Both the position numbers and the translations under genes were made by a program. Shown here piece by piece: positions 21,465-54,347 of a stretch of DNA of 54,490 nt (position 1 is the stretch's first letter; each line of letters opens with the position of its first letter). The stretch covers positions 1 to 54,490 of the forward strand of contig CALVRD010000002.1 in NCBI GenBank assembly GCA_944358435.1, in the 5' to 3' direction. The notes under the pieces were generated by a model. That model saw only the letters and a list, made by a program, of their open reading frames with translations. It was not told where the DNA came from and did not search any database. This DNA is from an uncultured Bacilli bacterium (lineage in GTDB: Bacteria; Bacillota_I; Bacilli_A; RF39; UBA660).

Positions 21465-23327
21465 TTAAATTTTTTTACTTGGATTTAAGCAAGACTTTAA
21501 TTTTACATATTCTTGATCAGTTAAAGTACTACCAGATACAACACTAGATAATAAGCTTTCTGGTGTTAAAGATGGAGATTTTTCTAAATTACGTTTTACT
21601 TTATTCTTAGAAATTATTACTCCAGCAAAACTATAAGTACGTTTTGTATTGATGTAGTTTTCTAATGATTCAGTTGATTCTCTTGATGTTTCATTACTCT
21701 CTTCTATTACTTGTTCTTGATAGTCAACAGCATTATATAAGTAGTCATAAATTTCATCATTAGGAACATAGAACTTATCAGTTGTTAGAACAGCTAACAG
21801 TTCATCTTTTGTATCAATTGGAATATTTAGAGTTTTTACAAGTCTTAGTCTAGCAAAACGATCTTTATAATTTAATAAATTTAAGTCTTCTTCTAAGTAG
21901 TCTTCATATCCTAATTCTAATAATGTATCTATTGAATGAGATAAATCTTCTTGGGCTAAGAAAGAATGATTTAGGTCTGTTTTTAAAGATGAGATTAACT
22001 CATAGTCTAATAAAACTTGATAATTTTCTTGTAGTAGAACTGGTTCGGTTAAAAGAATACTACCGGTATTAAATGCTTTAGGATTGGCCTTTTGCTCAAC
22101 TAAGAAATCAAGATTATTCATAAGAGAGGCATACTCAGTTGAATATTTATCAAATAATGACTCATTATTAATAACTAAATCATTAGTTATAATTTCTTTA
22201 GAAATAAGTGATGTTAATCTAGCAATTGTTTCACTATCACTGGTTGATACTGCTTTTAGCAAAATACTTGGTGTAGTCAATCCAACGGAAGTTAAATCTT
22301 CAAATATTTTAGAGGCATCTACTAGTGATTTAGTCATTGCCATTTCTACGTTATGATCGTTTGATAAAATACCATATTTAGCTAAAAGTACTTGATAATG
22401 AGATTTGTTATTAGCAGAAAGTTCATTATATTCAGCTGCCATCTTAGAATAAATTTTTTTATTATGTTGATAGATTAATCTTAAAGCTTCTAATCTTACT
22501 TTAGGACTTGGAATTTTACTAAGTAACTCTTCGGCATTTCTTATTTCACCACCACTTAAGGCTTTGATAAGGTCTTGTTTTAGCCTATCATACATAATAT
22601 TGGCTTTAGCTAGTTTTTTTTTATTTTTTTGGTCAGTAATTATAGCATTCTCGCCTCTTTTAATGGCACAATTAATTATATCCATTAAAGTTTCAAAATT
22701 TATCTTTCCTTTCAAATCTTCTTTGACTAATTTTTTTATATTAGAATATGACATATTCTTATTAGCTTCTGAATAATTATTAAATGATGATAAAACAATT
22801 TGAAGGGCCATTTTTGTATGAATTGCTGTTGTAACTCCATCTAGACAAGCATGTAGTATTTTTAAAAATAGAGCAGTTTCTTCTTTTGACATATTCATTT
22901 TTTTTATTAAATTATCAATTTCTTTTAATCTTTCACTTTGAGCTTTTGATTTTTTATCTAAAAAAATTAATGGGAAAAATAAAAAACCATTAAGATAAGA
23001 AGATGCTTCTAAATATTTATCTTGGTCAACAACAATATCTTTTAATTTATCAAGATATAGATAAATTTTGCTTATTGATTTATCATTCATAAAAGTCAAA
23101 ATAGATGCCAAAATTGTTTCCATTTGATCATGACTCAGATTCGGGTAATAATCAAATATTATCGCAGTCATTAAATTTAAATCGTCTAATTTGGCAGCTT
23201 GTATAATGTCAGTTGGAGTACCATCTTTTAAGAGATTCTTATAAAAATCAATTCGTACATCTTCAGTATCTAATTCATCAATATTTTTTTGCTTTTCTTC
23301 GGCAATAGCATCTAAAAATCTAAACAT
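21465..23327 (-). CDS. Hypothetical 620-aa all-helical protein of unknown function
   Basis: This is a long uninterrupted ORF. Its ATG overlaps the stop of the upstream gene by 8 nt, which implies translational coupling. It has no TM segments and no catalytic motif I recognise. The C-terminal ~300 aa shows a Leu-rich ~30-35-aa periodicity. Confidence 0.7.
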   Translation of the reverse strand: MFRFLDAIAEEKQKNIDELDTEDVRIDFYKNLLKDGTPTDIIQAAKLDDLNLMTAIIFDYYPNLSHDQMETILASILTFMNDKSISKIYLYLDKLKDIVVDQDKYLEASSYLNGFLFFPLIFLDKKSKAQSERLKEIDNLIKKMNMSKEETALFLKILHACLDGVTTAIHTKMALQIVLSSFNNYSEANKNMSYSNIKKLVKEDLKGKINFETLMDIINCAIKRGENAIITDQKNKKKLAKANIMYDRLKQDLIKALSGGEIRNAEELLSKIPSPKVRLEALRLIYQHNKKIYSKMAAEYNELSANNKSHYQVLLAKYGILSNDHNVEMAMTKSLVDASKIFEDLTSVGLTTPSILLKAVSTSDSETIARLTSLISKEIITNDLVINNESLFDKYSTEYASLMNNLDFLVEQKANPKAFNTGSILLTEPVLLQENYQVLLDYELISSLKTDLNHSFLAQEDLSHSIDTLLELGYEDYLEEDLNLLNYKDRFARLRLVKTLNIPIDTKDELLAVLTTDKFYVPNDEIYDYLYNAVDYQEQVIEESNETSRESTESLENYINTKRTYSFAGVIISKNKVKRNLEKSPSLTPESLLSSVVSGSTLTDQEYVKLKSCLNPSKKI

Positions 23328-24312
23328 TTTCGTTCGCCACCTTTTCTTTTACTAATGGTGAATCTTTAGTAGTATTTCTAGAAAGAATTGAAAATAGTTC
23401 TTGTTCATATTGTTCATTTAAAGCTAAAAACTCGGCATTTAATAAATTATTTTTTAAAGTTCCTTTAATAGCTAAAAAATCCCGATACTTTTTTTCTAAT
23501 GTAGTTCTATAACCTAAATTATTGTTATCTTTCTTAGTAAAGGCTGTTATAGCTGCATAATAATTATCTTGTAATCTGACAAAAGCTACACGAACTTTGA
23601 AGGCCTTTACTTGACTTAAACCAGTTAGTTCACTGTTACCACTAAAACGTTTATATTTTTTAAAAGTTCCGTTTTTTATAGATTGGAATAAACTTAAAAA
23701 TCTATTGTAGTAAGCTGGATCAATATGTTCAATTTCTTCTAATACCTGAATATTTCCACTAGTAGTTGGAACAAATATTATTTTGTTTTCTATTGCTTCT
23801 TCTTTAGGTTGCTCTTCTTCTTTTTCATTAGAATTAAAACCTTTATCAATTAAAGCTAATCTTTTTTGTTCTAATAATAAATCGTCTTTAAATTCAATAG
23901 CTTCTTCGATAGTCATACCTTCATCGGCTACAACATCTCTTATCTCTTTAATATTTTTCATTACTTCAGCTTTAAGTCTATATAAAATTCTTTGATATTG
24001 ATAATCATCAGTTTCTGGTAAAATCTCTGTATCATCACTTTCAAGTTCTTCAATAGTGGCTTTTAATAATTGCTGGTAGTAGAAAGCTACTTCGTCTTCA
24101 AAGGCTTTATCAATATTTTGATTATCAATATTATTTTGTTTTTTCTTTCCTATTTTAGTTTCTTGCTCTTGACTTTGACCAATAGTTGATGTAGTTTTTC
24201 TTAATTTATCTATTTCACTAGCCATAAGTCTTGCAGTTTTTATATTATCAGAAATAGCGGCCATAAGTTCTTCTTCGGTTACATCATCTAAGTCTAATAC
24301 TGTAAAATCCAT
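23320..24312 (-). CDS. Hypothetical 330-aa protein: acidic/coiled N-terminal half and a C-terminal region with a RelE/HigB(Gp49)-like sequence pattern
   Basis: The start ATG at 24310-24312 (MDFTVLDLDD) has a GAGGGGG RBS. The longer ORF-track start would overlap the promoter. The C-terminal segment FKKYKRFSGNSELTGLSQVKAFKVRVAFVRLQDNYYAAITAFTKKDNN resembles the strand pattern of RelE/ParE-superfamily toxins. That resemblance is pattern recognition only. Confidence 0.65.
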   Translation of the reverse strand: MDFTVLDLDDVTEEELMAAISDNIKTARLMASEIDKLRKTTSTIGQSQEQETKIGKKKQNNIDNQNIDKAFEDEVAFYYQQLLKATIEELESDDTEILPETDDYQYQRILYRLKAEVMKNIKEIRDVVADEGMTIEEAIEFKDDLLLEQKRLALIDKGFNSNEKEEEQPKEEAIENKIIFVPTTSGNIQVLEEIEHIDPAYYNRFLSLFQSIKNGTFKKYKRFSGNSELTGLSQVKAFKVRVAFVRLQDNYYAAITAFTKKDNNNLGYRTTLEKKYRDFLAIKGTLKNNLLNAEFLALNEQYEQELFSILSRNTTKDSPLVKEKVANENV

Positions 24313-24340: not shown

Positions 24341-24369
24341 ATTATACCATAAAACATGATAATTTGCAA
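24341..24369 (-). promoter_or_regulatory. Strong sigmaA-type promoter of the 330-aa/620-aa operon
   Basis: The minus strand reads TTGCAA-17 nt-TGgTATAAT (perfect -10 with an extended TG), about 28 nt upstream of the start codon. Confidence 0.7.
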
Positions 24370-24413: not shown

Positions 24414-24457
24414 AAAGAAAAAAATCAGTAATAACCTTTATAAATGATTATTACTGA
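24414..24457 (-). terminator. Intrinsic terminator closing the sigma-factor transcription unit
   Basis: A perfect 10-bp stem TCAGTAATAA / TTATTACTGA with a 13-nt loop is followed on the minus strand by TTTTTTTCTTT. It begins immediately after the last stop codon of the pseudogene. Confidence 0.8.
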
Positions 24458-25161
24458 CTATTTATTTTGCTTTGATGCTAATATTTTTTGATAAATTTTA
24501 GGAGTCTCTTTATAATAACTTGAAGTTAAACGAGATTTAGGTAAATATCTGCATGGTATCTTTGTTTTTAATCTTCGATTTAATTCATCAAGTGTTTCTG
24601 TTACGGCATCGGGATTATCCATGTAGATAGCTAAATATCTAGTTTCTTTATTTTTTTATTAATTTAGTTAAAGCTTTTTGTTGAATTTGATGACATCTTT
24701 CTTGAAAAATATCAAATATCTTTGCTGCATCTATAAGCAATACTGGTTCTTTATCATAAGTATCTAGGTCATATCTTAGTTTTAAAACTTCTAATTTTCT
24801 TGGAGTTAATTTGGTTGAGACAATTAATTTATCAACATTAATTACTAATGATGGTTTTTCTTCAAAGTTACTCATTTTTGAAAATAAGTAACGTTCAAAA
24901 TAATTATTTATTGATTTTTTAGGATCAATACTATTATTTTCATTTAATTCTAATTTTATTTAGGATTCTAGTTGTTCAATCATTTTTCTTCAATAAAATT
25001 TGTTAGCTTATATTGTGGATCTTCTTGAATCATATTAAGCATCTTCAAAACAATTTCTAGCTATTTTTAAATAGTCTTTTGATGATAGATTTATATATCC
25101 TATCAAAGAATAAAATTCTTCAAAAACAGGTATCACTTTATAGCTTGTTTTTTTTATTCAT
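24458..25161 (-). pseudogene. Decayed fourth sigma-70 paralog: N-terminal extension fused to region 4, with regions 2-3 deleted and multiple stops and frameshifts
   Basis: The RBS and ATG at 25159-25161 are retained. After MNKKNKL*, an A8 run shifts the frame. The next frame reads ..EEFYSLIGYINLSSKDYLKIARNCFEDA*YDSRRSTI*ANKFY*RKMIEQLES*IKLELNENNSIDPKKSINNYFERY.., with four in-frame stops. This is homologous to the N-terminus of the 594-aa sigma (FYNRYAFTGLSREEFNNFASNCLHDAKY...INNYLERI). A region-4 HTH follows (LTPRKLEVLKLRYDL...FQERCHQIQQKALTKLIKK*). After an A7-run frameshift the sequence continues ETRYLAIYMDNPDAVTETL, as in the intact copies. Confidence 0.8.
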
Positions 25162-25180
25162 AATATATTTCCCCTATTTT

Positions 25181-26638
25181 CTATTTTTTTGCTCTTACTT
25201 TTCTTTCTGTTTGACTTTTATTATTATTCTTTTCATTAATTTTTCTATCTAGTTCTTGTTCTTGGTGACGTAGTCTTGTTACTTGTTCTTGAAGTTCTAA
25301 TGTTTCTTGTAGTTTTTTACTACGTAGTTTTTTCTTTTCTTTTAGTGTTTCAGTTTCTGTTACAACGTTTGGTATATTTAAACGAATTACTTCTGGTTTT
25401 AACCTATCTATTATTTCTTTATGGAAGCGATTATGCATTTTTGGCGAAAGTGGGCCTTTTTCAGTACTTCTATAATTAATTAGCCAACACTCTTCTGGAC
25501 TTAATAATGGAGCAAGTAATCTTTCATAGTGTTCTTTTGAAATATTTAGAATTTCATATATATGTTTTCGTCTTTCTGGTAGCTTATCGGGTTCTATACC
25601 AGTTATTTTAGGATCATTTTGTTCATTTTCAGCAATTACAATTTCTTTAGGGATGCCATTTTTTTGAAATTCTTCATATACTTCTTCAGCAATGATATGC
25701 GAATAATCTCGATTACGATAAGGAGTTTTAGATAATTGTATTGAGGTTGCTCTTGCAATATCTGGTCGATCCATATAAATAGCTAATTCTCTTGTTTTAG
25801 GATGACTTACTAGTTTCCCTAATACTCTTTCAATTATCTTTTTGACCCCAGTATGTGTAATTCCTATTATGTTTCCAACTTCTTTTATACTTTTCATTGA
25901 TTGGTCAGGTTGGCCTATACCATATCTTAATTTAATAACGTTTATTTCTCTTTCCGATAACCCCGCTTCTTCAAGTAATTTTATAATTTCTGGGGTTGTG
26001 GCTTGATTAAAAAGTTTTTCAGATAAATCTTGATCATCAAGAGAAAATGTATCAATGAATCTATCTTCAGAATCAGTATTTATTATATCATTATAACTAA
26101 TAGTCGATGGCGTAGTTAGAAACTGTTCTAATTTAGATGTAGACATTCCTAATTTTTTAGCTAGTTCTTCAGTTGTATGTTCTTGATTATTATGCTCATT
26201 GCAGTCATTTATTACTTTTTCAATTTTTTGTAGTTTGAATTGTAATTCAATTGGAAGATGAATATTTCTACTTTTAAAAATTATGGCTCTTGAAATTGCA
26301 TTCGTAACCCAGCGAATTGCATAGGTTGATAGAGATATTTTACTATTACAATCATAATTATTAATGGCAAAGATTAATCCAAACACTCCTTCTTGAAACA
26401 TATCATCAAAGTCAAGTCCCCTATTTTGATAATTTTTAGCAATTCTTACTATTGTATGAAGGTTACTAATAATTAACTTATTTCTAGCATCATAATCTCC
26501 ATTTTGAGCTTTTATAACTAATTCATTTGTTTGTTTTTGATTAAGGACTGGGTACTCTTTTGTAGTTTCTAGATAAATTTGGATGCTTTCATCAGAAATG
26601 TTATCAAACGTCTTTTTTCTAAGATTAGTTTGAGTCAT
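25181..26638 (-). CDS. RpoD-like sigma-70 factor paralog (485 aa) with a ~195-aa extension after region 4
   Basis: Region 1.2 is IQIYLETTKEYPVLNQKQ. Region 2 is ISNLHTIVRIAKNYQNRGLDFDDMFQEGVFGLIFAINNYD...STYAIRWVTNAISRAIIFKSRNIHLP. Region 4 is LSEREINVIKLRYGIG...EVGNIIGITHTGVKKIIERVLGKLVSHPKTRELAIYM. The extension ends in LQETLELQEQVTRLRHQEQELDRKINEK. Confidence 0.9.
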   Translation of the reverse strand: MTQTNLRKKTFDNISDESIQIYLETTKEYPVLNQKQTNELVIKAQNGDYDARNKLIISNLHTIVRIAKNYQNRGLDFDDMFQEGVFGLIFAINNYDCNSKISLSTYAIRWVTNAISRAIIFKSRNIHLPIELQFKLQKIEKVINDCNEHNNQEHTTEELAKKLGMSTSKLEQFLTTPSTISYNDIINTDSEDRFIDTFSLDDQDLSEKLFNQATTPEIIKLLEEAGLSEREINVIKLRYGIGQPDQSMKSIKEVGNIIGITHTGVKKIIERVLGKLVSHPKTRELAIYMDRPDIARATSIQLSKTPYRNRDYSHIIAEEVYEEFQKNGIPKEIVIAENEQNDPKITGIEPDKLPERRKHIYEILNISKEHYERLLAPLLSPEECWLINYRSTEKGPLSPKMHNRFHKEIIDRLKPEVIRLNIPNVVTETETLKEKKKLRSKKLQETLELQEQVTRLRHQEQELDRKINEKNNNKSQTERKVRAKK

Positions 26639-26669
26639 TGTTTCACCTTCTCATTATTTTAGTTAAATG

Positions 26670-27869
26670 TTAATTTTTCATTTTAGTTAGAGGCTTATTT
26701 TCTGAAATGCAAGAGGTTCTTTTTTGGGCAATTGCTTCATCTAGTTCTTGTTCTCTTCTATGAAGTAATGTTCTTTGTTCTTGAAGACTTAATGTTTCAT
26801 CTAATTTTTGAGCTTTAGCAGCTTGTTTTTCTTGAAGTTCTTTTGAAATACCATTTTTTCTAATTTCTTCGTAGGTTTTTTCGGCTTTTGAATGATAATA
26901 ATGACTTACATATTTTTCAGTACTTATTATTTGTTCAGCAGTTGCTTTACCTACATCTGGACGTGCTAAATATATGGCAAGAGCTTTTGTCTTAGGATTA
27001 GTAATAAGTTTTCCTAAGGCTCTTTCCATAATTCTACTTGCTCCTGCTTTAGTAATTCCAAATTGTTTCCCTATTTCATCAAAACTATATGTTCTACCTT
27101 CTAGACTATCTATGCCAAATCTTAATTTTAAAACTTTAATTTCTGTTTCTGATAGATTTGTATCGTCAAAAAGTTTTTCAATTTCTTCTTTTGATATTTT
27201 CCCAAATAAAGCATCAGATAAATCTGAATCATCAGCAGTAAGATAATCGCCTATTTCTTCTTCAGATTCTTCACTTAATTTTTCATTATAACTTATAGTA
27301 TAAGGAGCTACTAATAGTTTTTCTAATTTATCTAGTGGCATTTTCAAACTTTGAGCTAGTTGTTTTGTTGTTGGTTCCGTATGATGATCATAAATATATT
27401 TTCTTCTAGCTTGCTCTACTTTATATATTTTAATTTGCTTTCTAATAGAAAGATGTATATTTTTACTTTTAAAAATTACGGCTCTTGCAATTTTATTCAT
27501 AATCCATTTTCCCGCATATGTTGATAGTTTTGCTTCTTCATTAATGTCATATTTTTGAATGGCAATTATCAAGCCAATTATTCCTTCCTGAATAAGGTCT
27601 TCTAGATCAAGTCCTTTATTTTTATAAAAATTTGCAATTTTAATTACTAAACGAATATTACTAAAAATTAGTAAGTCATTTGCTTCTTGATCGCCGTTTT
27701 GAGCTCTAATAACAAGGTCTTTTACTGTTTGTTGGTCAAGAACTGGATAGTTTTGAGTTTCTCTTATATATATTTTAGCTAGTCTATTAGGATTAGATGT
27801 TTTAAGTTCTTCAGTTAGTTCTTCAATTAATAAGTCTTCTTCTGGCTCTATCTGATTTAGTTCACTCAT
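26670..27869 (-). CDS. RpoD-like sigma-70 factor paralog (399 aa) with a ~97-aa extension after region 4
   Basis: Region 1.2 is AKIYIRETQNYPVLDQQ. Region 2 is FSNIRLVIKIANFYKNKGLDLEDLIQEGIIGLIIAIQKYD...STYAGKWIMNKIARAVIFKSKNIHLS. Region 4 is LSETEIKVLKLRFGID...IGKQFGITKAGASRIMERALGKLITNPKTKALAIYL. The tail is LDETLSLQEQRTLLHRREQELDEAIAQK. Confidence 0.9.
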   Translation of the reverse strand: MSELNQIEPEEDLLIEELTEELKTSNPNRLAKIYIRETQNYPVLDQQTVKDLVIRAQNGDQEANDLLIFSNIRLVIKIANFYKNKGLDLEDLIQEGIIGLIIAIQKYDINEEAKLSTYAGKWIMNKIARAVIFKSKNIHLSIRKQIKIYKVEQARRKYIYDHHTEPTTKQLAQSLKMPLDKLEKLLVAPYTISYNEKLSEESEEEIGDYLTADDSDLSDALFGKISKEEIEKLFDDTNLSETEIKVLKLRFGIDSLEGRTYSFDEIGKQFGITKAGASRIMERALGKLITNPKTKALAIYLARPDVGKATAEQIISTEKYVSHYYHSKAEKTYEEIRKNGISKELQEKQAAKAQKLDETLSLQEQRTLLHRREQELDEAIAQKRTSCISENKPLTKMKN

Positions 27870-27883
27870 TATTTTTTCTCCCC

Positions 27884-28051
27884 TTAATTTTTTTGATTTT
27901 TTAAAAGTTCTTCTAGTTCTAATTTTTGAAGAATTAATTCTTTCTTTTTAATTGACAATTCAAGGGCTTCTATTTCATCTTTTAGTTCTTTATTTACTAG
28001 ATCAATTGCTTTTATTTCACGATTTATTTTTTCTAATAGCTCTTGTTCCAT
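27884..28051 (-). CDS. 55-codon coiled-coil ORF overlapping the 3' end of the 594-aa sigma gene; probably the detached C-terminal tail of that sigma
   Basis: It is not on the ORF track because it is under 60 aa. My translation is MEQELLEKINREIKAIDLVNKELKDEIEALELSIKKKELILQKLELEELLKNQKN*. The same frame is open from 28102 and reads NVHYQKKLRKARLKF before the ATG, which aligns with KKLRSKKLQETLELQEQ in the 485-aa paralog. There is no convincing RBS of its own. Confidence 0.4.
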   Translation of the reverse strand: MEQELLEKINREIKAIDLVNKELKDEIEALELSIKKKELILQKLELEELLKNQKN

Positions 28052-29801
28052 AAACTTTAACCTTGCCTTTCTTAGTTTCTTTTGGTAATGTACGTTTTTG
28101 TTCTATTACTTCCTCAGTAATACTAGAACATAGCTCATTAATTGAATTATAATATTCTGCTAGTTCTTCATCACTTAAACTTTCTAATTCTTCAGCTGTA
28201 TAATTTTTTACTGGTTGATGGTCAGCAATCTCAGGAAATACTATAGGTCCATTTACTCTTATATCTTCATAGACATCATATGAATCTTGGAGAACATAAG
28301 TTGACTTTTTGGAATTTTCCTTTCTGAGTGCTTGAATTGTCTCTAAAGCAACCGTTGGACGTTGCATATAAATAGCAAAGGCTTCAGTGTCTGGACATTT
28401 AATTATCCTTGTAAATCCTGCTAAAATTATTTGACGAGCCCTTTCATCAGAAATACCCATAATTTGAGCAATATCTTTAAGTGCCATAATTTCTCCTGTT
28501 TCAAAGCCATATCTTAATCTTATGGCAAATTCTTGTCTTGGCGAAACATTGGCTTTTTTAAATAAATCAGATATTTCATTTGGAAGATTCTTTCTACTTA
28601 AGACATCTACTATATCATCAACATCTTCTGGAGTTAAATCTTCAATATCTTCATCATCTTCAAAAAAATCATTTTCTAAAGCAGGAGAATTAGAACTTAT
28701 TGTATGTGGATAACTATTTAGTTTTAGTATTTCTTCATCTGAGACTCCAAGTATGGCTGCAAATTCTTTTATAGTTGGCTCATGTCCATACTCTTTAATA
28801 TATCTTCTTTTAGTTTCTTCAAATTTATAAAATTTTGAATGAATATCAGCAGGAAGACGAATTGTTCTAGAATTGTCACGCAAAGTTTTTGTGATAAAAC
28901 TTTTTACCCACCAGACAACATAAGTTGAAAAGTTATTTGTACTATTTATGTCATATTTATCAATGGCACGCATTAAGCCAATTAATCCTTCTTGAAGTAA
29001 ATCATCTTGATCGTAACCTATTGCATAGTATTTTTGAACCATATGGGAAACTAAACTGATGTTACTTTCTATTAATAAATTACGGGCTTCTTCATTACCT
29101 TGTCTAGCTTGAGTAATAAGTTCTTTTATCTTTGCCTGACTTAGTTTTTTACTATGAAGCATTGTAGATTTGCAACCTTTAAAAACATTAGAGTTTTCTT
29201 TGCTACCTAATTCTCTAACTGTTTTTTTAGTAAAAAAACTTTTATCATCATAATCATTTACTTCTATTTCAGAAATGTCGAGCCCCTTTTTCTTACAGTA
29301 GGCTTGAATGAATATAGTGGTTATTGGAGCATATAAAAAGATATCACCATTAGTAAGTTCTTTAATATCATGTGTAAAAATAGCATCTAATGCTGAACTT
29401 AGTCTTTGATTACGTTCAATTAAAGTAGTAGCCATTTCTAAGGAAAGATTATACCCAAGAGACTCTAAGAAGTCATCGGCTTTAGAAAGCCGTTTTATAA
29501 ATTCATACCATTTTGCATTTATAGGAATAATTCTTTCTAAATAGTTATTTATAAGCTCTTCTTCTCTTTTTTCTAATTGTTTTTTAGTATAAGCATTCAT
29601 TCTTTCAGTTAAAATATCCGCATATAATTCTAAAATTGTTTTTGGAGAAGTATTTTCAGCATACTTAGCATCATGTAGACAATTAGATGCAAAGTTATTA
29701 AATTCTTCTCTAGAAAGGCCGGTAAAAGCATAACGATTATAGAAACTTTTTGTTATTAGTGATAGTTGAAATTTAATGCTTTTATTATGCTCTGATGTCA
29801 T
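28017..29801 (-). CDS. RpoD-like sigma-70 factor paralog (594 aa) with a ~230-aa N-terminal extension and a C-terminal extension
   Basis: The start ATG at 29799-29801 (MTSEHNK) has a GAGGGGG RBS. The ORF-track start would overlap the promoter. Region 2 is ESNISLVSHMVQKYYAIGYDQDDLLQEGLIGLMRAIDKYD...STYVVWWVKSFITKTLRDNSRTIRLP. Region 4 is VSPRQEFAIRLRYGF...IAQIMGISDERARQIILAGFTRIIKCPDTEAFAIYM. Confidence 0.9.
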   Translation of the reverse strand: MTSEHNKSIKFQLSLITKSFYNRYAFTGLSREEFNNFASNCLHDAKYAENTSPKTILELYADILTERMNAYTKKQLEKREEELINNYLERIIPINAKWYEFIKRLSKADDFLESLGYNLSLEMATTLIERNQRLSSALDAIFTHDIKELTNGDIFLYAPITTIFIQAYCKKKGLDISEIEVNDYDDKSFFTKKTVRELGSKENSNVFKGCKSTMLHSKKLSQAKIKELITQARQGNEEARNLLIESNISLVSHMVQKYYAIGYDQDDLLQEGLIGLMRAIDKYDINSTNNFSTYVVWWVKSFITKTLRDNSRTIRLPADIHSKFYKFEETKRRYIKEYGHEPTIKEFAAILGVSDEEILKLNSYPHTISSNSPALENDFFEDDEDIEDLTPEDVDDIVDVLSRKNLPNEISDLFKKANVSPRQEFAIRLRYGFETGEIMALKDIAQIMGISDERARQIILAGFTRIIKCPDTEAFAIYMQRPTVALETIQALRKENSKKSTYVLQDSYDVYEDIRVNGPIVFPEIADHQPVKNYTAEELESLSDEELAEYYNSINELCSSITEEVIEQKRTLPKETKKGKVKVYGTRAIRKNKS

Positions 29802-29828
29802 AAATCTTTCCCCCTCTAATCGGCACAT

Positions 29829-29857
29829 ATTATAGCACGGAGGACTTATTTAGTCAA
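29829..29857 (-). promoter_or_regulatory. Near-consensus sigmaA-type promoter of the sigma-factor array
   Basis: The minus strand reads TTGACT-17 nt-TGcTATAAT about 28 nt upstream of the first sigma start codon. Confidence 0.7.
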
Positions 29858-29899
29858 TATAACTTGTCTATAAAGAACATCCTATTAACTCGCAGTAAT

Positions 29900-29933
29900 A
29901 AAAACTTAAACAACAGACAGTGTCTGTTGTTTT
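29900..29933 (-). terminator. Intrinsic terminator of the addBA operon
   Basis: The near-perfect palindrome AACAACAGACA g TGTCTGTTGTT is followed on the minus strand by TTTAAGTTTTT, about 50 nt past the addA stop. Confidence 0.7.
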
Positions 29934-29983
29934 AAATAAGCAATATAAAATCTACGCATATATTTTATTCAATGTTTTGATTT

Positions 29984-39294: not shown

Positions 39295-41334
39295 TTATTT
39301 TAAATCTTCTTTGTTAGCAATCATTTCAAGTGTTGCTTCATTGATAGCATCATCTAGTGTTTTAATCTTATCTAGAATCATACTATAACCAACTGCTGCT
39401 CCAAATTCGTGTGGAAGACTCTTCATTTCTTTAGATAACTTTTTAGCGTAAGTTTCAACTTGTCTTTCACTATAGCCGACTAAGTATACTAAGAATTCAT
39501 TGCCGTCTGTACGAATTATTTCACTATTTTCTAGTTGAGTATTTACTAATATTCCAGCCGTTTTAATAATTAGTTGATCTCCTTCTTCATGACCAAAATT
39601 ATCATTAACGTATTTAATATTATTTAAATCAACCATTACTATAGCTTGTGGATATACTTTATTTTCTTCCCATTCTGGCATTTTTGCATTTAAATAATTA
39701 CGATTTTTTAAGGAAGTTAACATATCAGTATATTTATGTCTTTCACTAGTTTTTACTTTTTTAATTTTCTTTTTCTGTTTATATATTAAATAGATAGTTA
39801 GAACAACTACTAATGGAATAAAGACAATAGCTAGGGCAATTATATATGCTTGTTCTAGTGTTGAATCTTCTAAAATTGAAGCATGTAAATTTTCTATTCC
39901 ACTATTACGATAATTATAATATGAATTTGTATTAATTATATAATTGAACAAATCATAGAAGGCTTCATTATTCTTTTTAACCATAAATTTATAGTCATTC
40001 ATCATGGTATCTAAATATAATAAATTATAATCTTTAAACTTAGTTGTTTGATAGTAATTATATATTTCACGATCTAAAACAATTAATTTATTTTTAGCTT
40101 TTGATAATAATTCATCAATATTTTTATAACCAGTAATATTGGCTCTAGAATTTGTTGAAAAATAATTAAATAGTGAATCATCTTCTAGCATAGCAATTTG
40201 TTTATCTTTTAAACTTTCAAATGATGTAATAACATGATTATCTTTTTGATATCCTAAGACAACATATTCTTCAATAAAGGTTGATAATGTTGCATAATAT
40301 TTATCATTATTATAGTTATAATAATCAAAGTAAACATCTATTTCTCCTTTATCAATAGCTTTTTGTAAGTCTTCTTTTGTTTCATATTCTTTGTAGTTAA
40401 AATTAACATCTGTAAGACGAGCTATTCTATCTACATATTCTCCAGCAATACCTGCGACTTTACCATTTACTTTTACTTCATATGGAGCATTTGTTACGTA
40501 ACCATATGTATAGTTTTTAGAAATTAAAGCAGTTTTAGTTTTAGCTGATAAATTATTTTTTTGGACATAGTAGTTTAAATAATTTTCATTATATTCATCA
40601 ACATATTTTGTTAAACGCCATTTATTATAATATTTTGTTACTATTTTATTTAATTCATCATTATCTTTACTTAGAGTTAGAACAATTTGTTTTTTCATTT
40701 CAGTTAAATAATAATTTATGAAATACTTATCTTTTTCAATTGTGTAATCTAAGTACATTATATTAGGCATAACTATCATATTTACTTCATTATTATCTAA
40801 AGCATTATACAAGTCTGTAATATTTTTATATTGTTTATAAGAAAGATTAGTTCCTCCTTTTAGATAATAACTAACTTCTTCAGCATCTTCTTCAAAAACC
40901 CCAAAAGTAATATTTTTCATATCTTTTGTATGATTAATACGTTCATATGTTTTTCCAACTACTATGTAATTATCATTAAATAAGAATAAGTTATCTTTTT
41001 TTAGACTTTTATCATTATCAAGTATTTCAATACGATATCCTGTTGTAGTTGGTGCTGATGATTTTAAATAAGGAATTATATTAAATTCTATACCAACATT
41101 TTGTTGAAAGTCATTTATAAAGTTAAAAATTACTCCTTCACCATTCATGGCATATAGTGGATAATCATTTACCACTTCAAAGTCATAAGTTTTACCATTA
41201 TTTTTTTCAACCCAGCGTTTTTCACTAACTGTTAGTGTTGTCGTTTTGTCTTCTTTATTATAGTATCGGTATACTAATAGAAAGACAACTGCAGCTATTA
41301 TGATGGGAATAAATATAATTAGTTTTTTTTTCAT
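39295..41334 (-). CDS. Membrane receptor: two extracytoplasmic solute-binding-protein-like domains, a TM helix, and a cytoplasmic GGDEF domain with a degenerate active site (DGNEF)
   Basis: There is an N-terminal TM and a ~460-aa extracytoplasmic region, followed by a second TM (YIIALAIVFIPLVVVLTIYLIY). The GGDEF domain then reads YTDMLTSLKNRNYL...VMVDLNNIKYVNDNFGHEEGDQLI...IIRTDGNEFLVYL. Confidence 0.75.
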   Translation of the reverse strand: MKKKLIIFIPIIIAAVVFLLVYRYYNKEDKTTTLTVSEKRWVEKNNGKTYDFEVVNDYPLYAMNGEGVIFNFINDFQQNVGIEFNIIPYLKSSAPTTTGYRIEILDNDKSLKKDNLFLFNDNYIVVGKTYERINHTKDMKNITFGVFEEDAEEVSYYLKGGTNLSYKQYKNITDLYNALDNNEVNMIVMPNIMYLDYTIEKDKYFINYYLTEMKKQIVLTLSKDNDELNKIVTKYYNKWRLTKYVDEYNENYLNYYVQKNNLSAKTKTALISKNYTYGYVTNAPYEVKVNGKVAGIAGEYVDRIARLTDVNFNYKEYETKEDLQKAIDKGEIDVYFDYYNYNNDKYYATLSTFIEEYVVLGYQKDNHVITSFESLKDKQIAMLEDDSLFNYFSTNSRANITGYKNIDELLSKAKNKLIVLDREIYNYYQTTKFKDYNLLYLDTMMNDYKFMVKKNNEAFYDLFNYIINTNSYYNYRNSGIENLHASILEDSTLEQAYIIALAIVFIPLVVVLTIYLIYKQKKKIKKVKTSERHKYTDMLTSLKNRNYLNAKMPEWEENKVYPQAIVMVDLNNIKYVNDNFGHEEGDQLIIKTAGILVNTQLENSEIIRTDGNEFLVYLVGYSERQVETYAKKLSKEMKSLPHEFGAAVGYSMILDKIKTLDDAINEATLEMIANKEDLK

Positions 41335-52198: not shown

Positions 52199-52840
52199 TT
52201 ATTGTTCAGTAACTTCTTGTAACTCAGCAATATAAATTGTTTGTGTTTTTGAGTCGTTATTTGTACAAGTTACTAGTGTTAAGGTTGTTTTATCGTAGTT
52301 ACGATAAATTGCTATTGTACCTATCTTTGGATGTTGATATATATTAACAATTTTATAAGTATATTTTTTATTTTTATATGTTACGGTGGCTACATCACCT
52401 TTGTTTAGTTTATATAGGTCGTTAAAAAAAGCATTCCAACCAGTACCTGAGTGTCCTGCTATGATAAAGTTTCCTTTTTCAACGTCAGGATAGTTTGATC
52501 CTTCAACTACTAAAATGTTTTTATCAACATTGTTTTCAGTTGAACGTTTATCAAGAAATCCTTTTGTCAAATTGATTTTAGGTATATTTAAATATCCTAT
52601 GTAATCATTTGTAACTGGTCCTTCATCGGTCCCTTCTGTAATCTTTCTTCCGTCTTCTTCTATAAAGAAGTCTTCATTATTGGTATAGAAGATATTAGCC
52701 ATATAGTCAAAGGCCATTATCTTTTTAGATTGAATATAGTTATAAGAAAGAAAGAATCCTCCAATAAGTATTGTCACGGCAGAAATTGCTGCTAAAACAC
52801 TAGGAGAAATTCTTTTTTCATTTTTATTATCTATTGGCAT
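52199..52840 (-). CDS. Sortase-family transpeptidase (dedicated to the upstream adhesin)
   Basis: It has an N-terminal TM, the catalytic His in FIIAGHSG and the Cys in TLTLVTCT (TLxTC motif). It overlaps the adhesin gene by 14 nt. Confidence 0.8.
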   Translation of the reverse strand: MPIDNKNEKRISPSVLAAISAVTILIGGFFLSYNYIQSKKIMAFDYMANIFYTNNEDFFIEEDGRKITEGTDEGPVTNDYIGYLNIPKINLTKGFLDKRSTENNVDKNILVVEGSNYPDVEKGNFIIAGHSGTGWNAFFNDLYKLNKGDVATVTYKNKKYTYKIVNIYQHPKIGTIAIYRNYDKTTLTLVTCTNNDSKTQTIYIAELQEVTEQ

Positions 52841-54347
52841 ATTTATAAATAAATACAGCTGTAGAACCGATTATTATTAGACCAATTATTGTCATTATTA
52901 TTGAGTTATCACTAGCAGTATCAGGTACTTTTACTTTTGGATAGTTATAGAAATTAACTTGGAATGATAAATGTTCATCATTAATTGTAAATTTTATAAC
53001 ATCGTTTACTTTTTCATATCCTTCAGGTGCTTTTTCTTCTTCTACTGTATATGTATCGTATGGTAATCCTGTAATTGAATATGATTCAGTAGTTGTTTCA
53101 AATCTTGTAATAACTTCACCTTTAGAATTTTTTAAAACGAGAACTGCACCAGCTAATGGTTTATCTGTTGATTTATCAAGTTTTGTTATTGTTACAACAC
53201 TTACTTTTGGCTCATTATTTACTTTTACTAAAATATTTTTTGTTTCATCTGTAATTGTAAATTTAATTGGTGTTGTAATTTTTTTGTATCCATTTGGTGC
53301 TTTCTTTTCTTCTACTGTATAGGTACCATTGCTTAAATTTCTTATTACATGATTATTAGTTGTAGAAGTCCAACTTGTAATTACATTTCCAGCAGCATCT
53401 TTTAATACTAATTCTGCTCCAGCTAATGGTTTACCTGTTGTTTTATCCAACTTTACAATAGAAACTTTTGATGAAGATATATTTAAGTTTAGACTTGATG
53501 ATACATCTTCTGTTGTTGGATAAAGAATTGCTGGCATAACATTTTGCATTCCAGGATTTGTTGGTTTATATTCATATGCTTTATTAATTGTTGCTTTGGC
53601 ATTTACTGTTACTTTTATAGTTGTTGTGGTATTGTTAATTTCAGATACAGGTATTTTTACTTTGAACTTTTCTGTTGGAGCAAACGTTGTTTTTTCTTCT
53701 CCATTGGCTCCTATTACAATTGCTCCTTTTGATACTGAAACTGTATATGCTGTAATATTTGATGCTGTTACTGATAAGTTTCCAGATATGTAATATTTTT
53801 TATCTGATGATAATTCCATATTTTCAGATGTTGCATTTACTTTTATTGCCCCTTTAGGGTATCCTTCTTCTTTTCTTTTTTTAGCATTATCAACTAAGGA
53901 TTTTACATGCTTACGGATTCCATTTGGATCAGCGGCATTTACTTTGAAATCTGAGCCTAGGTTACCAGTACCAGCAGTTTCATCTAAATACCACCATATT
54001 GCTGTTTGAGTAATATAGTAATCTTTTAGACGATCTCCTGTAATACTTTTATGTGGATAACCATTTTCGATTATGTAGGCAAATCCTGCATCTTTTTCAC
54101 CTACTAATGTGGCTGTTATATTTTCAGCTGTTAATTTTGTTCTATCTAAGCAGTATACATAATCTCCAGATGTTGTCATTTTAGTTTGAAATCCAATTCC
54201 TGCTAAATAGGCATCTACTTTTTCACCACTACCTAAATTAATAGTTTGTGGTACAGCATTAACGTTAATAGCATTTCCAAAAAATAAAACGCAAGTTAAC
54301 ATTAAAGATAAAATTGAATTTAAATTTTTAATTATGTTCTTTTTCAT
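52827..54347 (-). CDS. Cell-surface adhesin: signal peptide, TQxA/thioester-type N-terminal domain, Ig-like middle domain, two SpaA/Cna-B-type repeats, and a C-terminal sorting signal with VPDTA instead of LPXTG
   Basis: The signal peptide is MKKNIIKNLNSILSLMLTCVLFFGNAINVNA. The thioester-type motifs are VYCLD (Cys66) and YITQTAIWWY (Gln114). The C-terminus has KVPDTASDNS, then the hydrophobic IIMTIIGLIIIGSTAVFIY, then KYANR. Confidence 0.8.
   Translation of the reverse strand: MKKNIIKNLNSILSLMLTCVLFFGNAINVNAVPQTINLGSGEKVDAYLAGIGFQTKMTTSGDYVYCLDRTKLTAENITATLVGEKDAGFAYIIENGYPHKSITGDRLKDYYITQTAIWWYLDETAGTGNLGSDFKVNAADPNGIRKHVKSLVDNAKKRKEEGYPKGAIKVNATSENMELSSDKKYYISGNLSVTASNITAYTVSVSKGAIVIGANGEEKTTFAPTEKFKVKIPVSEINNTTTTIKVTVNAKATINKAYEYKPTNPGMQNVMPAILYPTTEDVSSSLNLNISSSKVSIVKLDKTTGKPLAGAELVLKDAAGNVITSWTSTTNNHVIRNLSNGTYTVEEKKAPNGYKKITTPIKFTITDETKNILVKVNNEPKVSVVTITKLDKSTDKPLAGAVLVLKNSKGEVITRFETTTESYSITGLPYDTYTVEEEKAPEGYEKVNDVIKFTINDEHLSFQVNFYNYPKVKVPDTASDNSIIMTIIGLIIIGSTAVFIYKYANR
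52937..53474 (-). repeat. Tandem duplication encoding two ~88-aa SpaA/Cna-B-type (prealbumin-like) domains within the adhesin
   Basis: The first repeat is VSIVKLDKTTGKPLAGAELVLKDAAGNVITSW...GTYTVEEKKAPNGYKK. The second is VTITKLDKSTDKPLAGAVLVLKNSKGEVITRF...DTYTVEEEKAPEGYEK. Coordinates are approximate. Confidence 0.7.

Follow-up and report, generated by a model that had tools for sequence, protein, structure and literature searches.

Sigma factors set the global transcription programme, and to our knowledge the RpoD-like class of Firmicutes is regarded as essentially single-copy and highly conserved. What, then, could several RpoD-like genes be doing side by side in one chromosome? The question is raised by a 54,490-nucleotide stretch of DNA from an uncultured low-GC gut Bacilli bacterium (contig CALVRD010000002.1 of assembly GCA_944358435.1), referred to at its full length as the window, whose minus strand carries three intact RpoD-like sigma-70 genes (s1, s2 and s3) and a dead fourth copy head to tail, with a 55-codon open reading frame (ORF55) behind s1. 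An earlier note had read the genes as primary-type sigmas and knew of no described operon of several such genes; literature searches likewise found no description of tandem RpoD-like arrays or of the extended sigma family to which these genes are assigned below. With moderate confidence, we favour the explanation that the locus arose by lineage-specific tandem amplification of a two-gene module, and that it would yield co-transcribed alternative sigmas with different specificities. Judged from sequence, the better description is an amplified module of an uncharacterised extended sigma family, whose members are currently annotated merely as "sigma-70 family".

Anatomy of the array

The array and its boundaries comprise the following elements, in minus-strand order.

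29908-29932, minus strand: intrinsic terminator of addA, an 11-bp stem with a U-run; upstream boundary of the unit.
29829-29857, minus strand: sigmaA-type promoter with an extended -10 element, TTGACT-17-TGcTATAAT (11 of 12 matches plus the TG).
28017-29801, minus strand: s1, a 594-amino-acid (aa) extended RpoD-like sigma with an N-domain, regions 1.2-4, an AIYMQRPT helix and a KVKVYG end.
27884-28051, minus strand: ORF55, a 55-aa predicted coiled-coil protein, the conserved partner gene of A-type extended sigmas.
26670-27869, minus strand: s2, a 399-aa sigma with regions 1.2-4, an AIYLARPD helix and a terminal coiled coil, lacking the N-domain and any sigma-4.1-like module.
25181-26638, minus strand: s3, a 485-aa sigma with regions 1.2-4, an AIYMDRPD helix, one sigma-4.1-like module (aa ~355-420) and a terminal helix of ~60 residues, lacking the N-domain.
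24458-25161, minus strand: dead fourth sigma copy, with an N-domain remnant containing stops, regions 1.2-3 deleted, region 4, and the post-region-4 helix in another frame.
24414-24457, minus strand: closing intrinsic terminator, a 14-bp AU-rich stem followed by U7 (free energy, dG, -14.9 kcal/mol; z = -5.0).
24341-24369, minus strand: promoter TTGCAA-17-TGgTATAAT of the downstream 330-aa/620-aa gene pair; downstream boundary, outside the array.

The three intact proteins belong to the sigma-70 family. Pfam Sigma70_r2 (50-57 bits) and Sigma70_r4 (33-36 bits) score above cut-off in each, and Sigma70_r3 reaches 29.5 bits in s2 and 25.8 in s3, while s1 (21.4) falls just under the cut-off of 25.3; three complete sigma-70 proteins head to tail, as proposed, are thus confirmed with region 3 borderline in s1. 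The best structure-database matches are SigA chains of the S. aureus, C. difficile and B. subtilis type (E 1e-37 to 1e-40; for s2 a Firmicute SigA at E 6.5e-40). Region 1.2, said to be clear in two of the proteins, aligns to SigA in the best PDB match but was undetected by Pfam r1_2 in s1-s3 at E<=0.01. Both s2 and s3 begin at region 1.2 and hence lack region 1.1. In the AlphaFold2 (AF2) model of s3, the predicted local distance difference test score (pLDDT) is ~90 for sigma2, ~85 for sigma4, 67-79 for the module and 69-88 for helix 425-484.

The protein lengths given in the note were exact in the open reading frame analysis, as were the gaps of 147, 31 and 19 nt after s1, s2 and s3. Each gene is preceded by a strong Shine-Dalgarno sequence, the ribosome-binding site (RBS) being AGAGGGGGA for s1 and GGGGAG for s2. 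The longest open reading frame for s1 (603 aa) begins at an ATG at 29828; because this ATG abuts the -10 box and the gene call on a sister contig is also 594 aa, the start was placed at Met10 (ATG at 29801), from which the 5' untranslated region would be only ~20 nt.

A near-consensus promoter and a strong terminator do bracket the unit, as had been noted. Of the sigma-70-type sites in the 9.5 kb scanned, this promoter ranks first, and similar TTGxxx-17-TGnTAxTAT promoters, read from the sequence, precede the orthologous sigma genes in the related loci L030, L032 and L033. Since the AU-rich stem of the closing terminator escaped a standard terminator scan, a separate hairpin/U-run scan was run on the minus strand from 29990 to 24380 (dG <= -7); it returned only the addA terminator (~29904-29932) and that at 24414-24457, with no internal terminator between the array promoter and the latter. 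Because a single sigmaA-type promoter is followed by strong RBSs and by no terminator before the closing one, and because the terminator of single-copy relatives lies directly after the small open reading frame, s1, s2, s3 and the dead copy are very probably a single transcription unit as judged from these signals.

The dead fourth copy is real. Three collinear fragments, in different frames and with in-frame stops, match the family profile:

25038-25157, minus strand: start of the N-domain (E 2e-4 to 4e-4).
24651-24959, minus strand: end of region 3 and region 4 (E 3e-11).
24461-24655, minus strand: post-region-4 helix, in another frame (E 7e-6).

Region 4 lies in a 75-aa open reading frame at 24648-24875 (Pfam Sigma70_r4, E 2e-6) and the helix at 24458-24622; tblastn also matches the copy.

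Divergence from primary sigmas

Over 267 core columns, s2 and s3 are 46% identical to each other and s1 and s2 34%. Each of s1-s3 is 36-37% identical to its nearest other family member and 28-33% to ordinary RpoD, s1 being at 28%; for B-type members of the family (see below) the figure against ordinary RpoD is ~51%. RpoD models give s1-s3 ~125-160 bits (s1 131-153) against cut-offs of 354-572. Their best scores on RpoD-named models are 144-160 bits, and their best overall 149-160, whereas group 3 models (SigB/F/G, SigE/K, RpoH) give 87-113 bits, below both the RpoD-type scores and their own cut-offs. With RpoD/SigA-type proteins as the best matches, the exclusion of extracytoplasmic function (ECF), sporulation and TcdR sigmas stands.

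Promoter contacts were scored at 13 positions that we take, from established structural knowledge, to be the -10/-35 contacts of RpoD; they include the near-invariant residues Y430, W433, W434, Q437, T440, R584, E585 and R588 (E. coli numbering throughout). The canonical residue is present at 8 of the 13 in s1 and at only 4 in both s2 and s3, the lowest count among 170 aligned sequences and one tied with P0224. Substitutions in s2/s3 include W433 to K/R, Q437 to N, E585 to A/T and R588 to S/K. In s1, Q437 is S, R436 is K and R584 is D, and the -35 residues E585, R586, R588 and Q589 are kept.

Because these contact residues are replaced, s1-s3 are filed outside groups 1 and 2. They depart from group 1 in equivalog scores, contact residues and, in the window, dnaG linkage: as the note observed, the array is not downstream of dnaG, which is absent from the 54-kb window. 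They depart from group 2 in that regions 2.4 and 4.2 are not nearly primary-like in s2 and s3, with s1 intermediate. The designation as primary-type (group 1/2) sigmas thus holds as regards descent from RpoD but not as regards the scores, the 28-33% identity or, in s2/s3, the 4 of 13 contacts and missing region 1.1. Since s2/s3 have lost the N-domain and most contacts while s1 retains the N-domain and most -35 determinants, it is most likely that s1-s3 serve as alternative sigmas whose specificity has diverged.

A family of extended RpoD-like sigmas

With s2 as query, a word-indexed search covering 5.8 billion proteins returned near-identical copies from the same species only, followed by ordinary RpoD at 31-38% identity. 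An exhaustive search with a profile of s1-s3 returned, behind the window's own proteins, ~146 cluster representatives (50% identity) at 205-258 bits. This profile evidence places s1-s3 and the dead copy in a family of extended RpoD-like sigmas that is large, uncurated and drawn from AT-rich uncultured Bacilli. Other searches added little: with family alignment A3 the word-indexed search gave mostly ordinary RpoD, P0312, P0323 and P0339 being the useful matches; with N-domain alignment A4 nothing scored; and a contig scan with s2 found only ordinary rpoD or small sigmas of ~222-227 aa at 27-32% identity.

Family representatives are mostly 500-1400 aa long and their sigma core begins near residue 200. 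The order of parts is an N-domain, regions 1.2-4, an AIYMDNPD helix, one to five ~70-aa modules and a C-terminal ending, of which there are two kinds: a coiled coil finishing ...KVYG (A-type) or a region-4-like domain (B-type). The helix motif, A-[IV]-Y-[MT]-x-x-P-[DE], reads AIYMDNPD in the dead copy; motifs of the AIYMDNPD type occur in most representatives and are absent from all 19 ordinary RpoDs compared. The module (consensus KTIYEYFxxYTKEEIDxxxxxLxxEEKxLIxLRYGxDLxNP...FYxxLIPKMKRxL) matches sigma region 4.1 of SigA by profile (E 2.6e-4). The tail of s1 keeps the KVKVYG end and a CxxI..E segment.

An N-terminal domain of ~190 aa is present in ~110 of the 146 representatives; besides s2 and s3, some short members (P0222, P0224, P0256) lack it. 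In s1 it spans aa ~3-180 (window ~29262-29801) and scores 142-144 bits on the N-domain profile. It has no match in Pfam, NCBIfam or PDB sequences. Its single-sequence AF2 model is poor (pLDDT 53) and gave no significant Foldseek match (best E 0.08); the weak resemblance of its first ~75 residues to the SigE N-terminal domain (template modelling score 0.62 by target, E 5.6) amounts to no more than a lead. In the relatives P0150 and P0312 a Firmicute RpoD model reaches only the C-terminal half of the domain. Construction from the same unit as the C-terminal modules was considered and rejected (hhalign probability 1.9%).

Some members are further elaborated. P0185 (1185 aa) is fused to a ResIII/DEAD helicase and P0176 (1190 aa) to TPR repeats. 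P0146 (3581 aa), of non-AT-rich type, combines five sigma-like stretches with a region resembling glycosidases at its C-terminus, and is probably of a different lineage.

A conserved micro-ORF at the sigma 3' end

The 55-codon open reading frame had been treated as filling the 147-nt gap; it is present there, not as filler but as a conserved gene with homologues in relatives. These lie directly after or overlapping a sigma gene and are 66% (L030/L031), 52% (L032) and 51% (L033) identical to ORF55; the local alignment score of 123 compares with 43 +/- 6.6 for shuffled sequences, and none of 2000 shuffles reached it. The genes share the consensus LDxEIKAIDxVNxxLxxxIxxLELSIKKKxLILxKLELExL. A coiled-coil frame of ~50 aa is found at the 3' end of s1, P0160 (L030), P0147 (L032) and P0142 (L033) and is absent after s2 and s3. 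It is 51-66% identical across genomes, the sigmas only 27-29%, and although conserved it is unannotated by gene callers and databases.

The ATG of ORF55, read from the sequence, sits within the s1 codons for the C-terminal V-Y-G, and in the window, L032 and L033 alike the small-ORF ATG lies in the sigma codons for C-terminal (V/T)-Y-G, which implies translational coupling between sigma and micro-ORF. The RBS and ATG of the micro-ORF (T-ATG-G; window 28017-28051, L032 12117-12130, L033 12936-12952) fall on the stretch that encodes the ...K(V/T)YG motif of A-type sigmas. Since the overlapping start lies there, part of the motif may be conserved for translation of the second gene.

Synteny and origin of the array

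The array, dead copy included, occurs in four contigs of one species-level group; the neighbouring L27 clusters with those of metagenome-assembled genomes (MAGs) named "Bacilli bacterium". Two more distant MAGs from NCBI show what the slot holds elsewhere. In L032, whose AddA is 76% identical to that of the window, and in the syntenic L033, the order is addB, addA, other genes, LMWPc (which encodes a low-molecular-weight phosphatase), a single A-type sigma of 709 or 983 aa, a 50-52-aa frame overlapping the sigma 3' end, a 330-like gene, a 620-like gene and rplU. s1 occupies the same slot as P0147 (L032) and P0142 (L033), and sigma orthologues at this addBA...rplU position are 27-29% identical. 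A further relative (AddA 70%, L21 94% identical) has the slot without a sigma and keeps the 330/620-like pair. The A-type sigma P0160 lies in a different neighbourhood, again followed by the same small frame.

In L030, L032 and L033 a terminator lies directly 3' of the small frame; in the window that place is taken by the RBS of s2, and the terminator is found beyond the dead copy. Because of this difference s1 and ORF55 are taken to be the ancestral module, with s2, s3 and the fourth copy inserted within the transcription unit. In neighbour-joining trees s2 and s3 are sisters in 200 of 200 bootstrap replicates and s1-s3 group in 123 of 200, which supports the local duplication already suspected. 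The shared 16-nt string on which that suspicion drew is present, inside an 80-nt stretch at 74% identity, but gene conversion, also raised, was rejected: 16 nt is the longest exact match between copies, and the fraction of identical codons at identical residues is 0.67 against 0.57 expected from codon usage, a small excess.

Tandem RpoD-like sigma genes are found again on other contigs from this group of organisms. L016 has two family genes and a contig of GCA_016648615.1 a 416-aa and a 399-aa gene. In L034 (8722-12853), pheST is followed by a 383-aa sigma and then by a B-type sigma of 950 aa that has four sigma-4.1-like modules; in L035 (10001-14035), between tsf and frr, a 927-aa protein of two complete fused sigma cores (P0139) precedes a 394-aa sigma. 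The first core of that 927-aa protein has a very aberrant region 2.3/2.4, FSTYVYKCIDSYL. In one Bacilli MAG an RpoD-like paralogue directly follows a canonical dnaG-sigA-trmK operon.

Constraint between strains

Divergence was measured against the most divergent sister contig (97.8% identity).

s1: divergence 0.39%, 0 indel columns.
s2: divergence 0.75%, 0 indel columns.
s3: divergence 1.85%, 0 indel columns.
Dead copy: divergence 7.7%, 30 indel columns.

Across all four contigs s1-s3 are free of indels. The pooled ratio of nonsynonymous to synonymous substitution rates (dN/dS) of s1-s3 is ~0.29, with 0.20 and 0.27 for s2/s3; addBA gave 0.07-0.14 and the two downstream genes 0.30-0.41. Substitution patterns thus show purifying selection on s1-s3.

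The segment 24313-25180, comprising the dead copy and the terminator/promoter spacer, is 7.7-8.3% diverged between two strains, with many indels. Even the synonymous divergence (dS) of the flanking genes is lower (0.6-4.5%), which points to a recombined or hypervariable segment more than to simple neutral drift.

Proposed explanation and alternatives

We propose that the ancestral slot between addBA and the rplU operon held a promoter, a sigma gene, a micro-ORF and a terminator, and that three further sigma copies were inserted between micro-ORF and terminator, which would give the order s1, ORF55, s2, s3, dead copy. The whole array would be transcribed from the one sigmaA-type promoter. s1 would have kept the N-domain and most -35 determinants, and s2/s3 would have lost the N-domain and had most -10/-35 contacts replaced. 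The three proteins would bind core RNA polymerase as alternative sigmas of differing promoter specificity, and it is improbable that any of them is the housekeeping sigma. Regulatory or partner-binding roles would probably fall to the micro-protein and to the C-terminal extension (post-region-4 helix, sigma-4.1-like module and long helix). The anatomy, family membership, synteny, duplication and decay of the fourth copy are read directly from the data; co-transcription, altered specificity and the roles of the tail and micro-ORF we infer.

Several points weigh against this proposal. In the trees s1 joins s2 and s3 with a bootstrap value of only 62%, and long branches may affect this result; s1 has lost ~30 aa of the family-typical terminal coiled coil; a canonical dnaG-linked sigA elsewhere in the genome is only presumed; the dN/dS values derive from only ~43 substitutions, with s1 alone at 0.63; and one copy is already dead, so that the remaining ones could follow.

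Could one copy, most plausibly s1, instead be the housekeeping sigma, with the others as back-ups and the family as the SigA of this lineage? s1 is complete from N-domain through region 4 and keeps four -35 residues, dnaG-rpoD is absent from the window, many family members are 51% identical to the ordinary RpoD core and keep the canonical FSTYATWWIRQAI and TRERIRQIE motifs, and P0312, a related long sigma, occurs once and among housekeeping genes. Yet s1 itself is at 28% core identity, lies far below the RpoD cut-offs and carries the three substitutions given above. The relative with 70% AddA identity has no sigma at the locus and must therefore use another primary sigma, the Bacilli MAG has a canonical dnaG-sigA-trmK operon adjoined by its RpoD-like paralogue, and locus orthologues at 27-29% identity, against 76% for AddA, have evolved far too fast for a housekeeping sigma. 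We consider this very unlikely.

It is unlikely, though less so, that a recent tandem duplication left extra copies without function, now drifting towards pseudogenes, with only s1 and ORF55 of consequence. Such drift would agree with the death of the fourth copy, with an array known from one species-level contig group only, with constraint relaxed relative to addAB (dN/dS 0.2-0.6 against 0.07-0.14) and with the loss of the N-domain and most canonical contacts in s2/s3. However, s2 and s3 are just 46% identical and therefore old duplicates that remained intact; they show no indels or stops in four contigs, against the 30 indel columns of the dead copy; their RBSs are strong and their dN/dS low; the sigma2 and sigma4 folds of s3 are predicted with confidence; and the fold-critical residues T429, Y430 and W434 and the EG..GL motif are kept in both. 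Least probable, and in our view very unlikely, is the insertion into a variable slot of a sigma cassette that is mobile, derived from phage or anti-phage (MzaA-like). MzaA models do match (NCBIfam 137-149 bits, PADLOC 84-109 bits), the slot between addA and the 330-aa gene is variable in content (LMWPc, His_Phos_1, DinG-like helicase, NUDIX, oxidoreductase) and some family members carry helicase or TPR fusions, but the MzaA cut-off is 800 bits and the alignment is limited to the generic sigma core. No integrase, repeats or tRNA were found near the array, its GC content is like that of the flanks, and the neighbours have no other PADLOC or PHROG match. The AIYMDNPD pattern had 0 matches in 2.9 M viral contigs, and tblastn of phage and plasmid collections matched the sigma core only, at 36-53% coverage and <35% identity. 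A phage, plasmid or defence origin was accordingly rejected, the PADLOC/PHROGs matches being to generic sigmas only. In metagenomes, the DNA pattern for AIYMDNPD occurred in 7 short contigs, 2 of them with family genes.

Returning to amplified alternative sigmas as the favoured reading, a broader version can be put forward tentatively, as doubtful in this full form: a new regulatory layer in uncultured AT-rich gut Bacilli, in which extended sigmas diversify fast and are frequently amplified in tandem, and in which an A-type-coupled micro-protein may bind the sigma tail as an anti-sigma or co-sigma, here serving or titrating three sigmas that would be co-transcribed and differ in promoter specificity.

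Relation to known systems

The array proteins resemble group 1 RpoD/SigA in their collinear regions 1.2, 2, 3 and 4 and in the RpoD-type helix after region 4.2. They differ in missing the RpoD equivalog cut-offs 2-4-fold, in lacking dnaG linkage and in the extension of 100-200 aa that each of s1-s3 carries after region 4, which has no counterpart in RpoD. Group 2 sigmas such as cyanobacterial SigB-E, Streptomyces HrdA-D and RpoS provide several non-essential RpoD paralogues per genome; having the same RpoD-like 1.2-4 architecture, they offer the closest functional parallel to a set of paralogous sigmas tuning transcription globally. Their regions 2.4 and 4.2 are almost identical to those of the primary sigma, and their genes are normally dispersed. 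In contrast, these regions are diverged in s2/s3, and the array is operon-like, with an N-domain, a C-terminal tail and an overlapping micro-ORF that are all absent in group 2.

In the B. subtilis spoIIGA-sigE-sigG cluster two sigma genes are adjacent on the same strand, with partial read-through. Both sigmas belong to group 3, act in sporulation with a dedicated protease and have known regulons; neither RpoD-like nor recent paralogues of each other, they also lack a tail. MzaA of the MZA system (NF041931 / PDLC02203) is also a long protein with an RpoD-like core and a large extra N-terminal region, but membership was rejected: scores of 84-149 bits against a cut-off of 800 cover the generic core only, and no other Mza genes lie nearby.

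Although a single, dnaG-linked primary sigma is normally expected in a Firmicute, extra SigA-like genes have precedents in this group (PMC7438776, PMC13492147). C. difficile has two, sigA1 and sigA2; the second is entered as a SigA of stationary phase whose promoter depends on SigH, and its identity to B. subtilis SigA is 56% (PMC7438776), much nearer to canonical SigA than the window copies. Turicibacter sanguinis has three sigA paralogs (PMC13492147). In both species the extra genes have separate, non-adjacent locus tags, and no tandem array or accessory domains are described (PMC7438776, PMC13492147).

The locus thus shows numerous, fast-evolving, RpoD-derived sigmas with unrecognised accessory domains, repeatedly in tandem, and at least one subtype coupled to a conserved micro-protein. 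If their specificities do differ, they would constitute a compact natural set of orthogonal RpoD-type sigmas and would allow the divergence of -10/-35 recognition after duplication to be studied.

Genomic setting and neighbouring genes

The window (GC ~27%) is chromosomal DNA of a walled Firmicute, encoding pcrA-ligA-gatCAB, addBA, rplU-prp-rpmA, lipoteichoic acid (LTA) synthase, PASTA and LytR proteins, a sortase and a pilin; addBA and the rplU operon are the neighbours of the array. Rfam and tRNA scans of the window gave no match.

The 330-aa and 620-aa genes downstream of the array (21465-24312, minus strand) are unannotated and stand directly upstream of rplU-prp-rpmA in all relatives examined (L023-L027, L032, L033). 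As the pair is present there also where the sigma is absent, it was rejected as a part of the sigma system. The window proteins have no PDB, Pfam, NCBIfam, PADLOC or PHROG match. The pair evolves fast, at 28-40% identity while L21 is at 86-94%, and the 330-aa homologue in L033 has a faint match to Pfam Gp49 (RelE/HigB-like).

The slot downstream of addA is a small hot spot of gene turnover. It holds no gene in the window (29802-29983) and, among relatives (L023-L027 4357-7154, L032 9483-9932, L033 7384-9898), LMWPc, an oxidoreductase with LMWPc, or His_Phos_1 (with or without NUDIX) with a DinG-like helicase. Two further features of the window are unrelated to the array: a 679-aa GGDEF-domain protein (39295-41334, minus strand), and the sortase gene, which adjoins a pilin gene with SpaA/thioester domains (52199-54347, minus strand).

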